Shown: positions 1 through 6,795 of the stretch, in pieces
Layout: every line of letters starts with the position of its first letter
Numbering within the stretch: position 1 is the first letter of the stretch
DNA from: an uncultured Planctomycetota bacterium
GTDB taxonomy: Bacteria; Planctomycetota; Planctomycetia; Isosphaerales; Isosphaeraceae
Assembly: GCA_963845755.1 (NCBI GenBank)
Contig: CAWJTV010000024.1
Location: 1-64,000 of the forward strand
DNA length: 64,000 nucleotides
Direction: 5' to 3'
The notes under the pieces: model-generated
The model's database searches: none
The model's input: the letters and a program-made list of their open reading frames with translations, nothing else
Told to the model about the DNA's origin: nothing
Made by a program: the position numbers and the translations under genes

Positions 1-273
1 GACCGTTTGGCCAAGGAAATCGAAGCCGTTCTCCAAATGCGTGATCCTGGTTTTCTCGTGGGAGAGTTCGAGACCCCGCTGACGTAGGAAGTGTTCCACG
101 AGAGGTCGGACTTCGCGTTGCAGGAGGATTCGTGAGGTGCTGGTGATGATGAAGTCATCCGCATAGCGGACCAGATGGACCTTGGCTTCGTCACGCCGAT
201 GGCCTCGGGTGCCAAAGCGTTGCTCCAACAACTGCTGGAGCCCATCTAACGTCCGATTCGCCAGCGAGGAGAA
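1..273 (-). pseudogene. ltrA: Group II intron RT/maturase, fragment 4 (end of RT4 to RT7), continues out of the window
   Basis: Minus-strand translation gives SP-LANRTLDGLQQLLEQRFG...KVHLVRYADDFIIT...LELSHEKTRITHLENGFDFLGQTV, including YADD and GFDFLG. There is a 1-nt deletion near 266. Confidence 0.92.
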
Positions 274-298
274 ATCACGCCCCCAACAATGTTGCAAA
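274..298 (+). repeat. Left terminal inverted repeat of the LSR element
   Basis: ATCACGCCCCCAACAATGTTGCAAA, the exact reverse complement of 2270-2294. Confidence 0.95.
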
Positions 299-430
299 AC
301 CGTCCCTGATCCCTGACTCTGTCATTTCCAGATCGCGGCTCCGACCGAAGTATGGGCAAGGATGGCAGCCCGGGCTCGATCCCCGTCCAAGGCAGGCTGA
401 CAGCCGCGGTCTTGGAGAGGATGAGTCAAC

Positions 431-643
431 ATGATTACATCTCAACGGAGGTCAGCCCTGAGCCCTCCCGTCACCCGCCATTTCGAGTTCACCCGGTTTC
501 AGGATGAGGTGATCGCGCTGGCATACCAGGCCTTGATCCCGGTCGTTTCTCGCCACCTGGAACGGTCGCGATCGCGATCTCACGACAACGAGCAGGCCAC
601 CACAACGATGCAGGGACTCCGATCAAAGGCCAGAGGAGCTTGA
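431..643 (+). CDS. Small hypothetical protein of the LSR element (candidate directionality or accessory factor)
   Basis: 70-aa ORF with GGAGAGG upstream. It ends 6 nt before the LSR ATG and its 3' end carries the LSR RBS (GAGGAG). Confidence 0.65.
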   Translation: MITSQRRSALSPPVTRHFEFTRFQDEVIALAYQALIPVVSRHLERSRSRSHDNEQATTTMQGLRSKARGA

Positions 644-649
644 CCAGCC

Positions 650-2294
650 ATGCTCAATCACGATCTCTGTGTGGGGACCTATGGCCGGGTCTCCGGGGAC
701 CAACAGTCCAAGGAGGACACGATCGCCAGCCAGCTTGAGGCGATCAGGCAGCGCGTCGCGAGCGACGGCTTGGTATGCTCCCCCGAGCTGTGCTTTGTGG
801 ACGATGGCTACACCGGGGATACCCTGGTCCGCCCGGGCCTCGAACGACTTCGGGACCAGGCCGCTGCTGGGACCATCGATCGCCTCTACATTCTCGATCC
901 CGATCGACTTTCGCGCAAATATGCCTACCAGGTTTTGATACTCGAGGAACTGGCCCGGTGCGGCGTTGAGGTCGTCTTCCTGCGCAATCCCCTGGGTCAC
1001 GGACCCGAAGAGAACCTGCTTGTGCAGGTCCAGGGCATGATCGCTGAATACGAGCGTGCCAAGATCATGGAGCGGTGTCGCCGAGGCAAGCAGTACGCCG
1101 CCCGCCACGGCTCGGTCAACGTGCTCAGCGGCGCGCCGTATGGCTACCGCTACATCGGCAAGCATGAGGGCGGCGGCGCGGCGCGTTATCAGGTCGTGGC
1201 CGACGAGGCGCGGATCGTGCGGAAGATCTTCGGGTGGGTCGGCCAGGAACGATGCTCGATCGGTGAGGTTTGCCGACGTCTGCAACGCGACGGCGTCCCC
1301 ACGCGGACGGGCAAATCGGCCTGGGACCGCTCGGTGATCTGGTCGTATCTCAGGAACCCTGCCTACAAGGGGACGGCCGGTTTCGGCAAGACGCACGCGG
1401 GCGCCCTCAAGCCGAAGCGGCTGCGCGCAACGCGGCCGTCCTGAGCAGCCCCGGCGTCCTGTCTCTCGGGTCGATACATCCACGCAAGAACAAATCTTCA
1501 TCGATGTCCCCGGTTTGGTGAGCGAGGAACTCTTCGGGATGGTTCAAGCTCAAATCGAGGAGAACCGGCAACGCCGGCGCGAACGGCTCCGTGGCGACCG
1601 CTATCTCCTCCAGGGGTTAGTTGTCTGCAAACGGTGCGGCTACGGCTGCTACGGCAAGCCGGTGAGCCGGGCCTCGGCCAAGGGGAAGGTCCCCTACGCC
1701 TACTACCGCTGCACCGGCTCCGACGCCTATCGTTTCGGTGGCCAGCGACTGTGTTGGAACAAGCAGGTCCGCACGGATGTCTTGGACGCCGCCGTCTGGG
1801 AAGATGTGCGTCATCTCTTGTCCGAGCCCGAACGGGTTCGAGTGGAGTACGAACGGCGGCTGCACGGGCCGGAGACAGGCCCAGACCGCGAGGTGAAGCA
1901 TCTCAACAAATTGATTGCGAATCTAAAAAAGATGATCGCTCGATTGATCGATGCCTACGGCGAGGGATTACTTAACAAGTCGGAGTTCGAGCCGAGGATC
2001 TTGGCAGCGCACGAGCGCCTGGCCAAACTGGAGGATGAGTGTCGGCAGCAGATTGACGAGGCCAACCAGGAAGCCGAACTGCGGCTGGTGATCGGCCAGT
2101 TGGAGGAGTTCGCGAGACGCGTTTCCCACGAGTTGCAAGAGCCGGACTGGGCCACGCGACGGGCGATCGTTCGGGCTTTGGTGAAGAAGGTCGAGATCGA
2201 CGAGCAGGAGGTCCGCATCGTGTATCGGATCAGTCCGTCCCCTTTTGAGGGAGGCCCCCAACAGGGTTCTTTGCAACATTGTTGGGGGCGTGAT
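650..2294 (+). CDS. Large serine recombinase (resolvase, recombinase, Zn-ribbon and coiled-coil domains); frameshift near 1425; no stop codon inside the element
   Basis: YGRVS catalytic motif, DDGYTG..RPGLERL, DRLSR, PYGY, LLQGLVVCKRCG..YYRC..C. ORFs 650-1444 and 1515-2573 join with one added base. The ORF reads through the right TIR (SLQHCWGRD) into flanking DNA. Confidence 0.9.
2270..2294 (-). repeat. Right terminal inverted repeat of the LSR element
   Basis: TTTGCAACATTGTTGGGGGCGTGAT. Confidence 0.95.
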
Positions 2295-2355
2295 GATCCC
2301 TCCTTGAGGTGTGCCTTCCGTGGTGGCGAAGAGAACTTGCTTCTCCAGGAAACCG
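2295..2355 (-). pseudogene. ltrA: Group II intron RT fragment 3
   Basis: Minus strand encodes GFLEKQVLFATTEGTPQGGI, which continues KWLKA from 3888-3910. Confidence 0.9.
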
Positions 2356-3887
2356 GTACCCGTTCATGGGGCGTGATAGCTGGAATTAGGCGGCCTCGAT
2401 CTTTGGTGGAGTCACCGGGACGAGGGAGGGGATCGATTGGTTGCTCCGAGCCGCTTCAAAGCACGATGTCAGGTAGCCCAGCACGTCTCGTCCCTGCTGC
2501 CGGCACGTGGCCACCACGGTCAACATCCGCTCGACGAACCGGCTCCCCTGCGCGCTGTCGGTCCCCCCGCTGATCCGCCGCCAGATCACGGCGTGCCGCT
2601 CGGCGCACTCCGCCGCATTGTTGTCGGGAGGCACCCCCTCGACCCGCGCGAAGGTCCACAAGCTCCCCTCCACGCGCAGGATCTCGGCGCACATCCCGCG
2701 CGTCCGCGGACATCCGCACCGCGCACCGTCGTCCAGCGCCGCTTTGACCTCGCGCCTCACCCGGGTCATCGTCGCGCGGAATCGCCCCCGATCCACCCGC
2801 TCGGCCTCGAGGCGATGCCACCAGCGGTACAACCGATCCGACAGCCTCAACAGTCGTCGGCCGATCGGTTCGGCCGCCCCGCCGCGGTCGATCATCGCCT
2901 GGAAATCGCGGCGGAGATGGCTCCAGCAGATCTGCCGGCCGGCCGCGGCGATCCAGTCGTAGGAACTGCAACGGTCGGTCACCGCGATCGAGCCGTCGTG
3001 CGTCCCCAGGACCGCTCGGGCCACCTTGGCGGTGCGGTTGCGGGCGATGGTGAAGACGGTGAACATCGCGGTCACCGCCGCCCAAAGCCAGGCCTTGGCC
3101 GCTCCTCCCGCCAGGAGGTCTCGTCGGCATGGATCACCTCCGCCGTGTGGACGGCGACGGCCAGCTCGTTATAGGGGGCCTCCAGCACGGCGGCCGATTG
3201 TCGCTCCAGCTTGGAGATCATCCCGGTGGAGATCGACAGCCCCAACAGATCGCCGGCGAGTTGCTGGATCTGCCGCTTGCTGAGGCGGTAGGCGCCGGCC
3301 AGGGTCGCCAGCACGGCCTGAGTGTACGGGCTGAAGTGGCTGGTGGAGACCCCCTCGGGGAGGGTCGCACACGTGGTCGTCCCACAGTCCGGACAAGCGA
3401 GCCGATGCAGCCGGTATTCGTCCACGAGTGGCTCGATCCGGGGCAGGTCGGCGACCTGATGGATCAAGGGTGTGGGATCCTCGCCGTGCAGCGCATGGCC
3501 GCAGCGACGACAGGCCCCGGGCCGACGATCGGTGGACGATCGGAGCTCCTCGGGAGGGACCAGGGCGCGGAACGCCTTGCGATGGCCGGGTTGTCCGCCG
3601 CGTTTGCGCCGCGAAGGCGGAGTCGGCGGCTTTCGTTTCAGGCCGATCGGGTCGGAAGAGGGGGGCTTGGAGGAATTCGTCGAGTTGAGTCCGAGCCGGG
3701 CCCGGAGATCGCGCACGGTGGTCTTCAACTCGGCGATCTCATCCCGGAGCACATTCCAGGCATCGAGGAGGGCGGCTTGCGCGTCCTCGGGCACGGTGCT
3801 CCAGAGTGGCTCAGGGATCGGAAGCTGCTGACTCATATACAGTAATACGAACTAACTGTACAAATTGTTCGGGGTGTGAACGGCTAC
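2356..3887 (-). mobile_element. IS66-family element, single-ORF ISBst12-like group
   Basis: Ends GTACCCGTTCA and GTAGCCGTTCA (inverted). 8-bp TSD GGAAACCG at 2348-2355 and 3888-3895. Length 1,532 bp. Confidence 0.92.
2386..3836 (-). CDS. IS66-family DDE transposase (frameshift near 3100)
   Basis: NSTNSSKPPSSD, GGQPGH, CxxC zinc motifs, HADET, QICWSHLRR and PPDNNAAE motifs across ORFs 3072-3836 and 2386-3075. Confidence 0.9.
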
Positions 3888-4417
3888 GGAAACCGGCCTT
3901 CAACCATTTCCTGAGCATGTCCTTGTCCATGGGGATGTGGTCCAGCAGCCAGTTATGGCTGATTTGATCAAAGCATGCTTTGATATCCCCTTCCAAAATC
4001 CATTTCGGACCGGTGGGATTCCTCAGGATCTTGTGACATTGATCCAGAGCATCGGCGCAGCATCGTTCCAACCGAAAGCCATAGGAGTGACCGTCGGCTT
4101 GAGATTCCGCGATGGGATCGAGACCGAGCAGGTGGAGGGCCTGCATAGCTCGATCGGCCATGGTGGGAATCCCGAGGGCGCGGCGGCGGCCGTTGCTCTT
4201 GGGAATGTACACCCTGCGGAGCGGTTGCGGCTGATAGCCGTGCCGACGCAAGGCGTTGAAGGCCCTCGTCTTGGCCTCCGGCGTGGTCCAGAGGATTCCG
4301 TCCACGCCCGGAGTTCTTGCACCCGAATTGCTGATAACTCGTAGAATGGCCAGAGCCCGGCCACTATATGAGTGAGTGAGCAGGTAAACCAGGGCTTTGA
4401 CTTTATTCCACCTGCCC
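3888..4417 (-). pseudogene. ltrA: Group II intron RT fragment 2 (RT0-RT3)
   Basis: GRWNKVKAL..TPGVDG..PLRRVYIPKSNGRRRALGIPTMADRAMQ..SYGFR..WILEGDIKACFDQISH..KWLKAG. Confidence 0.93.
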
Positions 4418-4523
4418 TGATTAGCGACAATTAGAATTCCCGCCCAGCGACAATCAGAATTCCCGCCTCCTCTCGCTTGGTTGTTCACTACGTGGTTTCC
4501 TCCTCGGTCAGGAGGCAACCACC

Positions 4524-6034
4524 ATGACCAAGGACATCCAGGTTCTCAAGCTTCGCCAGCTTCTCGGCGAGGGAATGCCGCTCTACCGTGCGGCTTGGAA
4601 GGTGGGTATGGACGCCAAGACCGCTCAAAAGTACCGAGACTCGGATCGCCTGCCCAGTGAATCGTGGACTCCCAAGACCTGGCGGACCCGGGAGGATCCG
4701 TTCCAGGAAGTCTGGCCGGAACTCCACGATCGGCTGGTGCTCAACCCGGGGCTCCAAGCCAAGACCCTGTTTGAGGATCTTCAGCATCGCTTCCCGGGCC
4801 GGTTCCCCGACGGCCAGCTCCGGACCTTGCAACGGAAGATCAAAGCGTGGCGGGCCACCGACGGTCCACCCAAGGAGGTTTTCTTCGATCAGATCCACAC
4901 GCCCGGCGCGTTGGGCGCCTCCGACTTCACTTCCCTGAACGATTTGCAGGTCACACTCGCTGGCCAATCGTTCGATCACCTGGTCTATCACTTCGTTCTG
5001 ACCTACTCCAACTGGGAGACCGGCACCGTCTGTTTCTCCGAAAGTTTCGAGAGCCTCAGCCAGGGGCTCCAGAACGCCCTTTGGGAACTGGGAGGGGTTC
5101 CCCAGACTCATCGCACCGATCGGCTCACGGCCGCGGTCAACAACCTCGGCGATCGGGACTTGTTCCAGCAACGATACCGCGCCTTGATGGCCCACTATGG
5201 CATGGCACCTCAAGCCATCCAGGCTGGTAAGGCCAACCAGAACGGAGACGCCGAACAGAGTCATAACCGGTTCAAACAAGCGATGGATCAGGCCCTGATG
5301 TTGCGCAGCGGCCGCGATTTCGCCGACCGAGCAGCCTACGAGCTGTTCCTTCGCCAGGTCTTCGCTCAGCGCAACAGCGGACGGATCCCGCGGTTCACCG
5401 AGGAACGACTGTTGCTGAAGGACCTCCCCTCGCGGCGGGTGGACGCCTGGCACCGGCGCCGGGTGCGGGTCACCCAGGGGAGTACGATCCGGGTTGGCTC
5501 CAACACCTACTCGGTGCCGAGCCGACTCATCGGTGAACAGGTCGATGTCCATGTGATGGCGGAATGCCTGGAGGTGTGGCACGGCGCGGCGCGATTGAAA
5601 GGGTCCCTCGGCAGCGCGGCCACAACAAACACGTGATTAACTATCGGCACGTGATCGACTGGTTGGTGCGCAAGCCGGGGGCGTTCGCGGCCTATCGGCA
5701 CCGGGACGCGATGTTCCCAACCGGCCGGTTTCGCCGAGCCTACGACGTCTTGCTGGCACAAAGCCCGGCCCGCGCCACCAAGGATTATCTCCGGATCCTG
5801 GAGTTGGCGGCGAAGGAGTCGGAAGTCGGGGTCGACGCCGTCCTGGGCCGGCTCTTGGACGGGAACATGCCGATCACCCCGACCGTCGTCACGGAGCACC
5901 TGGGTCACGACCTGGGCCTGCCTCGCGCGATGGAGGTGGTCGTCACGACGGTGGATTTGTCGATGTACGACCTGTTACTCGAGACCAGGGAGGATATTCC
6001 ATCAGTAAGCCAATCGATGTGCATGAGTCTCTGA
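4524..6034 (+). CDS. istA: IS21 transposase IstA (frameshift near 5590)
   Basis: WRTREDPF, LRTLQR, ASDFT, HRTDRLTAAV, NGDAEQSH, NTYSVPSRLIG; C-terminal INYRHVIDWLVRKPGAF in the next frame. Confidence 0.9.
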
Positions 6035-6795
6035 CGGACTGCCTTCGCGAGCTCCACCTGCCGACGATCCGGCAGGCGTACGAATCGGCGGCGGCACGAG
6101 CCCGTCAGGAGTTGACCAGTTACGAACGTTACCTCCTGGATCTGGCGGAGCGCGAGTGCGAGTCGCGGCGTTCCCACCGGGTCGAGCGGTTGTTGCGAGA
6201 ATCGAGGCTGTTCATGGAAAAGAACCTGTCAAGCCTGGACCTGAAGCGACTGCCGTCCAAGGCGGCGCAGCAGGTCAGAACTCTGCTCGAAGGCGATTTT
6301 GTTGGACGAAATGACAATGTGCTCATATTCGGGAATCCCGGCAGTGGCAAGAGCCACGTGGCGTGCGCGATCGGGCAGGAACTGATCCGCTCGGGGCGGA
6401 AGGTGATGTTCGCGACGTGCGCCTTGATGGTTCAAGATCTGTTGGCCGCGAAGCGCGACCTGAAGCTGCGCGGTTTTCTCAAGAAGATTTCCCGATATGA
6501 GGTGCTGATCCTTGACGATATTGGATACGTACAATACAGCCGGGACGAGATGGAGGTGCTCTTCAACCTGCTGGCGGAACGGTACGAGCGCGGGAGCGTG
6601 ATGCTGACGAGCAACCTGCCGTTTTCGGGATGGGAGGCGATCTTCAAGGATCCGATGACGACCGCCGCCGCCATCGACCGGCTGGTGCACCATAGCGTGA
6701 TCGTGGAGTTGAACGTTCCGAGCTACCGAGCCGAGCAGGCCAAGAAGTCGCGTCAAAAGCCGGTGGAACCGACAGACGCACGAGAGGAGGGATGA
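6019..6795 (+). CDS. istB: IS21 helper ATPase IstB
   Basis: Walker A GNPGSGKS, Walker B LILDDIGY, TSNLPFSGW, AAIDRLVHH. Confidence 0.95.
   Translation: MHESLTDCLRELHLPTIRQAYESAAARARQELTSYERYLLDLAERECESRRSHRVERLLRESRLFMEKNLSSLDLKRLPSKAAQQVRTLLEGDFVGRNDNVLIFGNPGSGKSHVACAIGQELIRSGRKVMFATCALMVQDLLAAKRDLKLRGFLKKISRYEVLILDDIGYVQYSRDEMEVLFNLLAERYERGSVMLTSNLPFSGWEAIFKDPMTTAAAIDRLVHHSVIVELNVPSYRAEQAKKSRQKPVEPTDAREEG

Follow-up and report, generated by a model that had tools for sequence, protein, structure and literature searches.

A compact transposon family whose large serine recombinase gene is predicted to be completed by joining of the element ends

Serine integrases are valued as genome-engineering tools for their one-directionality, and how their direction is set is an active question. 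Among transposons moved by large serine recombinases (LSRs), the clostridial elements Tn4451 and Tn4453 (TnpX) and Tn5397 (TndX) pass through a circular intermediate and recombine at a 2-bp core; elements of the Tn4451/Tn5397 type are 6–21 kb long and carry cargo genes. The Tn4451 circle creates a promoter for tnpX, with no coding continuation. Joined ends also assemble a junction promoter in IS911 and IS30, and some insertion sequence (IS) transposase frames without an internal stop use flanking sequence. For IS1239, variable transposase C-termini are mentioned in the abstract of PMC13630536. Among recombinase genes with attP inside them, the nearest known case is that of the myxophage Mx8 (intP/intX), in which, according to a passage of PMC6070905 citing Tojo 1996 and Magrini 1999, attP lies within the integrase gene and integration creates a new 3' end and an enzyme with modified properties. 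Multi-targeting LSRs use many sites that share a motif around a conserved core dinucleotide, and most members of the multi-targeting clade carry DUF4368 (passages of Durrant et al. 2022, PMC10083194). Here, we define a roughly 2-kb LSR insertion-sequence family from one copy in the genome of an uncultured Planctomycetota bacterium. A literature search found no description of an LSR gene that crosses a circle junction, nor of this ~2-kb family.

The window (the whole stretch of 64,000 nucleotides that was analysed) holds the element near its start (Table 1). The joined ends, that is the right end, AT and the left end, make up a perfect 48-bp palindrome, and once they are joined the left repeat forms the first 8 codons of a tail that continues the LSR frame. 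The element has two genes only, the 70-aa ORF and the LSR, both on the + strand, and a scan of the integrated sequence 200–2400 for a sigma-70-like promoter or a terminator found none. Six copies are present in this genome, namely the one in the window and those on contigs C16, C3, C47, C6 and C22 (loci L002–L006).

Table 1 Features of the element in the window, and where the tail stop falls with respect to the small ORF across the family
Feature	Position	Strand	Description
Reverse-transcriptase ORF of a group II intron copy (target)	1..275	-	PF00078, E 6e-13; resumes at 2295-2385
AT core dinucleotide, left copy	274..275		Empty target copies (GAGAG-AT-GATCC) show one AT
IS-like element	276..2292		2017 bp; perfect 23-bp inverted ends; AT/AT flanks
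Left terminal inverted repeat	276..298	+	23 bp, perfect; half of attP
Tail-coding region	276..434	+	52 codons in the LSR frame across the joined ends; TGA 432-434; no in-frame ATG/GTG/TTG
Small ORF	431..643	+	70 aa; conserved, unnamed family; ends 6 nt before the LSR start
LSR, N-terminal part	650..1444	+	Frame 2; resolvase catalytic domain and start of recombinase domain; stop is frameshift-induced
2-base deficit in GC repeat	1422..1425	+	From copy alignment; splits the LSR frame in this assembly
LSR, C-terminal part	1426..2294	+	Frame 0; end of recombinase domain, zinc ribbon, coiled coil, last strands, right-repeat codons
Right terminal inverted repeat	2270..2292	+	23 bp; other half of attP
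AT core dinucleotide, right copy	2293..2294		Filled site has AT on both sides
LSR read-through into flank, integrated state	2295..2573	+	92 codons beyond 2294, and stop 2571-2573
ATGA overlap of tail stop with small-ORF start			14 Planctomycetota-clade elements and one Acidobacteriota element
Tail stop, Chloroflexota/Gammaproteobacteria group	F-E codons of the FEP motif		Lies about 50 nt into the small ORF, provided the upstream ATG is the start
Tail stop, one subfamily	6 nt before ATG of small ORF
Tail stop, Mycoavidus	19 nt before ATG of small ORF
Tail stop, Azospirillum	140-180 nt inside small ORF

Mobile elements lie nested together where the window begins. The pieces of the intron reverse-transcriptase ORF (1–297, 2295–2385 and 3814–4518, all on the - strand) are broken apart by the LSR element and by an IS66-family element, whose transposase (2389–3836, - strand) appears as two ORFs with DDE_Tnp_IS66, zf-IS66 and DUF6444 matches, a split that may be an indel artefact. 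Further on (4524–6792, + strand) lies an IS21-like pair, a protein with an integrase core and a Mu-transposase C-terminal domain followed by an IstB-like ATPase (E 5e-63). The genome holds many copies of two group II intron variants, both of which are targeted by the LSR element, and an RNA-library contig of metatranscriptome run X20 spans an empty target site (joint 266 to 2292).

Uninterrupted target copies on three contigs of the same genome (C45, C17 and C13) have a single AT where the filled site has two. The second intron variant has AC as its core in five empty copies, and its two filled copies, inserted in opposite orientations, each combine an AT junction with an AC junction, which would follow from a 2-bp staggered exchange of the attP AT with the target AC and later resolution of the mismatch; insertion in both orientations fits the palindromic AT core. 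Across 43 distinct insertions in other genomes the flanking dinucleotides are identical in 30 (AT 18, CT 8, AG 2 and CG 2). The left target arm is rich in G and the right one in C, and in this they resemble the element's own ends. Judged from empty and filled sites, the crossover is at the 2-bp core, as for serine recombinases.

The two parts of the recombinase gene match PF00239 (E 7e-27, 650–1441) and PF07508 (E 8e-12) on the N-terminal side and the zinc ribbon PF13408 (E 5.5e-11) on the C-terminal side, and the YxRVS motif, which has the active-site serine, is invariant in 24 aligned relatives. Catalytic, recombinase and zinc-ribbon domains, a coiled coil and exchange at a 2-bp core together identify the protein of the window as a large serine recombinase. 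DUF4368 gave no match in the LSR parts of the window (E ≤ 0.01), nor in an intact relative (L031) or in the joined recombinase P0025 described below (E ≤ 1). A point absent from an earlier note on this DNA is that the window LSR lies in two frames, 650–1444 and 1515–2573. The second is called as an ORF from 1515, and its frame is free of stops from 1338 to the right end, where the final codon inside the element (2292–2294) includes the core AT.

Intact full-length LSRs of 528–558 aa are encoded by 26 of the 36 distinct relatives, and the window LSR was aligned with intact relatives of 546–558 aa. Candidate cultured hosts of intact copies are Azospirillum brasilense ATCC 49958 (L094/L105), Ktedonobacter robiniae (L080), a Paraburkholderia strain (L097) and Singulisphaera acidiphila DSM 18658 (L032). 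Short-read contigs of all three DNA runs (X1, X2 and X5) have an extra GC behind 1422, which places both LSR parts in one frame. Indels occur at differing places of the LSR in all six copies of the genome, likewise in six copies of a sister family, and four of the element copies differ from one another by very few substitutions. This pattern, with the GC restored at 1422, suggests long-read assembly errors rather than decay, and the break near 1422 is most likely an assembly error or a lesion specific to this copy. We also weighed a programmed frameshift in the LSR and rejected it, given that the six copies are broken at different places, relatives are intact and short reads restore the frame at 1422.

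Relatives were collected by searching one genome per species with the longest intact LSR piece, and the best 80 of 576 stretches were examined; among these the hosts are Planctomycetota, Chloroflexota, Acidobacteriota and Alpha-, Beta- and Gammaproteobacteria. Several relatives are entire contigs of ~2.0 kb, as expected where multi-copy repeats collapse. Conservation of the repeat core ACAATGTTGCAAA is broad and extends to relatives of many phyla, and both ends were defined for 46 elements by the geometry of the window (core minus 10 nt). A Pseudomonas/Burkholderia clade has different, asymmetric ends and an unchanged layout. The sister family, 67% identical, is present in six copies in the window's own genome (L007–L012; contigs C42, C11, C18, C20 and C13) and has a short tail of 25 codons, in which LIPDTVI..SRLR is kept and YGxGF is absent. 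It adjoins GC-rich hairpin repeats of the CCCGGGGTTTCACCCGGGG type. In the records examined, plasmid homologues are annotated just as "recombinase family protein". Gene models of the family are systematically wrong at the 3' end, given that gene callers extend them into flanking DNA.

The earlier note, made from the letters alone, had stated that the LSR frame meets no stop codon within the element and runs on for 92 codons into the flank, and that joining the ends gives a 48-bp palindrome followed by 52 open codons that end in an ATGA overlap with the small ORF. Each of these readings is correct, and the absence of a stop extends to the whole family: the LSR frame is stop-free from the end of the protein match to the right end in all 46 elements, five of which are disrupted further upstream in the LSR, and the phase at the junction is identical in all 46 (phase 1, one base of the last codon plus the core dinucleotide). 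What follows in the integrated state is different at every insertion site and amounts to about 2 to 374 codons in relatives. As the note had proposed to check on homologues, the frame that continues from the junction into the left end is also kept open: of the 36 distinct left ends, 34 have it open over at least 29 codons (87 nt), against 2–23 for the other five frames. The two left ends that fall short are a sister-family tail ending at codon 26 and one copy (L058) interrupted by a stop at codon 8. Tails range from 25 to 110 codons, and one subfamily stops after 25–29 and is without the YGxGF part. The common pattern is roughly NNVAK, encoded by the repeat, then a hydrophobic stretch, then (I/V)xRxxLRPxYG(D/Q/E)GFxGAPL.

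Conservation at the left end could reside in the DNA only, in recombinase-binding sites, a promoter or a leader of the small ORF, with the open frame as a by-product of GC-rich sequence. Within the repeat the codons are indeed invariant at conserved residues, which implies constraint on the DNA over the first 24 nt, and the genome of the window is GC-rich, with long open frames common and many overlapping ORFs. Beyond the repeat, however, conserved residues use 3–5 synonymous codons each: Arg is encoded by AGA, CGA, CGC and CGT, Leu by five codons, both conserved Gly positions by all four codons, and Ile and Pro by three each. Eleven representatives were aligned without gaps and anchored on the repeat, an arrangement that favours no frame, and in the tail frame they have no stops and a mean amino-acid identity of 0.41, close to the nucleotide identity of 0.48, whereas the other five frames have 7–18 stops and amino-acid identities of 0.18–0.34. 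The ratio pN/pS is 0.67 in the tail frame (pS 0.76, saturated), and the two remaining + frames give 0.99 and 1.29; a value of 0.69 is reached in one minus frame, which, though, has stops in 7 of the 11 representatives. The frame is open in AT-rich members too (Francisellaceae-like and Mycoavidus). Constraint on the DNA alone is hence a very improbable account of the left end, and in these alignments the codon variety beyond the repeat would be explained solely by selection on the protein.

A protein-coding tail might still be a small gene of its own, started internally and made as a free peptide in both states of the element, with the run-in from the LSR incidental. In half of the left ends (18 of 36) a possible start codon (ATG, GTG or TTG) occurs in frame among tail codons 1–22, and gene callers list such ORFs in some relatives. 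Against this, no such codon precedes the motif in the window and 17 others, and ATG is found in just 4 of 36 left ends, at varying positions (16 to 64). Nor does a separate peptide account for the missing stop and the constant junction phase of all 46 LSR genes, or for a frame that is already open at the element's first base. We consider a separate peptide unlikely as the general explanation, and separate translation of the tail is possible in the lineages whose left ends have an in-frame start. The universally missing LSR stop, the fixed phase and the lack of a conserved tail start together identify the tail as the C-terminus of the LSR.

The tail motif has a look-alike inside the recombinase domain, the segment P-RLRPQRGxPEQPRR (columns about 259–275 of alignment A2; about 1405–1460 in the window), which resembles RLRPxYGxGF of the tail. 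MAFFT aligned tail fragments to this internal RLRPQRG segment, and the likeness may be a true internal repeat or a coincidence among sequences rich in Arg and Pro. A first alignment (A1) that included tail fragments was discarded, as the fragments fell on the internal RLRP segment.

On the sequence evidence, then, the full-length LSR can be encoded by joined ends only, either in an excised circle or at a head-to-tail junction, and every integrated copy encodes an LSR without the conserved tail that ends in arbitrary flank-encoded residues. Such joined forms were looked for in natural sequence. A protein collection searched with the window tail for longer proteins gave 32 matches, of which 31 are read-ins from ORFs that flank integrated copies, for example intron reverse transcriptases. 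The remaining one (P0025), from a metagenome contig of 1509 bp, is a recombinase of 472 aa with recombinase and zinc-ribbon domains, in which the tail is contiguous with the right-repeat codons. With one recombinase among 32 tail-containing proteins, the joined form is rare in assembled data, and a profile of 27 tails found, besides P0025, no joined recombinase among the 120 matches listed (135 at E ≤ 0.001).

At the DNA level, a pattern for joined repeats hit nine loci in metagenome contigs, eight of them unrelated palindromes and one a family member (L112). This contig of 2114 bp has a terminal direct overlap of 123 bp, as in a circle or tandem of a unit of roughly 1991 bp; its core is CG, as in the integrated relative L079, and its ORF passes the junction into the tail. 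The same pattern had no match in the genome of the window and none in 401 genomes of the phylum, and in viral contigs it hit once, by chance and with no LSR present. Window positions 1–2600 were also compared with contigs of three DNA runs and one RNA run; the joint of right to left end was not listed, and contigs drop rare forms. The RNA contigs covered the flanking intron only and left the element without cover. The joined form thus occurs in nature, in P0025 and L112, neither of which is from the window's genome; both could be head-to-tail tandems or assembly products, not circles.

Strong support for the proposal of the earlier note, that the recombinase gene becomes complete on circularisation, comes from the universal absence of a stop with its fixed phase, from conservation of the tail as protein and from the two natural joined sequences. 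The corollary of this proposal, that the LSR has one encoded C-terminus in the integrated state and another in the joined state, is borne out as well, and synonymous turnover and the lack of a conserved start indicate that the terminus of the joined state is under selection. The closed, translationally coupled loop of two genes fared less uniformly. The ATGA overlap (TGA 432–434 of the tail with the small-ORF ATG at 431), which may allow re-initiation, recurs in the 14 Planctomycetota-clade elements and one Acidobacteriota element and is not family-wide: outside the ATGA lineages the stop of the tail ranges from 140–180 nt within the small ORF to 55 nt ahead of a candidate start. In the sequences compared, the tail always ends within or adjoining the small ORF, and strict coupling appears as a lineage feature that does not define the family. 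The small ORF is itself conserved family-wide, with a basic N-terminus, the pattern FEPxRL....L..AY..L.P and an end at or overlapping the LSR start. It has no match to a Pfam or NCBIfam family, and a comparison with a protein atlas returned only hypothetical clusters, with scores below 0.9.

We consider it probable that the element is a ~2-kb LSR transposon with the attP core inside the recombinase gene, in which the tail is made only via joined ends and the activity or direction of the enzyme may be controlled by the state of the DNA. The recombinase would cross over at the 2-bp core between attP, formed by the joined repeats, and GG/CC-rich pseudo-palindromic targets, and the element would leave as a circle. 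A transcript begun in the left end could then go once around it, cross the junction and encode the tail-bearing enzyme, which would perform or favour integration. Integration would split the gene again and leave a tail-less LSR of different activity, capable of rare excision or nearly inactive, so that activity or direction would depend on the state of the element, possibly with the help of the conserved small ORF.

A more specific version, in which tail-less LSR, perhaps together with the product of the small ORF, carries out attL x attR and the tailed LSR made only from the circle carries out attP x attB, is tentative and we would not bet on it. As such a directionality device, the physical state of the element would select the isoform and replace the separately regulated directionality factor of phage serine integrases. 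The tail segment RLRPxYG, being like the internal RLRPQRG, might act by competing with that internal segment.

Several observations count against the split-gene explanation and its state-dependent control. The joined form is rare, the tail is variable in length and 18 of 36 left ends have in-frame starts. In addition, the RNA that spans the junction would form a 22-bp hairpin inside the ORF (about -48 kcal/mol, computed), which could hinder translation of the mRNA. The tail may also be fused to the LSR without any switching role, the stop having drifted past the attP core, the enzyme working equally with or without the tail and the conservation reflecting a minor stabilising function. The range from 25 to 110 codons and the subfamily without YGxGF would fit such drift, and so would the AlphaFold2 model of P0025 (mean pLDDT 70, long helices of the coiled coil at 283–363), in which the tail (residues 401–472) is unordered at pLDDT < 50, a value obtained without alignment depth for the tail. 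A prediction of the complex from a full-length LSR alignment and a tail alignment scored 0.27 against a mark of 0.32, with controls absent, and favours neither reading, and a comparison of the tail profile with solved structures gave two meaningless matches (E about 1.7). Dispensability is, however, hard to square with a motif kept from Planctomycetota to Chloroflexota, Pseudomonadota and Acidobacteriota at a pS of 0.76, and the arrangement is retained in every clade examined. We regard a tail without a switching role as unlikely, and state-dependent control of the LSR as the better hypothesis for the family.

If true, selection of the enzyme's form by the state of the DNA, in a family this compact and widespread, would offer a new and simple control of direction, of interest to students and engineers of serine integrases. 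The likeness to Mx8 is that the crossover core lies inside the recombinase ORF and that integration replaces the C-terminus. However, Mx8 is a temperate phage of 50 kb with a tyrosine recombinase and one or two chromosomal attB sites, whereas the element of the window has a large serine recombinase, is 2 kb long, multi-copy and multi-target, and has an arrangement conserved across many phyla. With Tn4451 and Tn5397 it shares movement by an LSR, a 2-bp core and multiple copies (six) at different sites; unlike Tn4451, it is a minimal unit of 2 kb and its junction completes the ORF itself. In its range of sites the window LSR resembles multi-targeting LSRs, but it is without DUF4368, and the passages of PMC10083194 on which the comparison draws do not describe an LSR gene that crosses its attachment site. 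As in IS911 and IS30, joined ends would alter expression of the transposase; these elements and the read-out IS have DDE transposases, and the residues that read-out IS take from their flanks are not conserved, whereas the family described here encodes a conserved protein segment beyond the junction. What appears new relative to the Mx8 and Tn4451 kinds is that the LSR gene itself crosses the circle junction.
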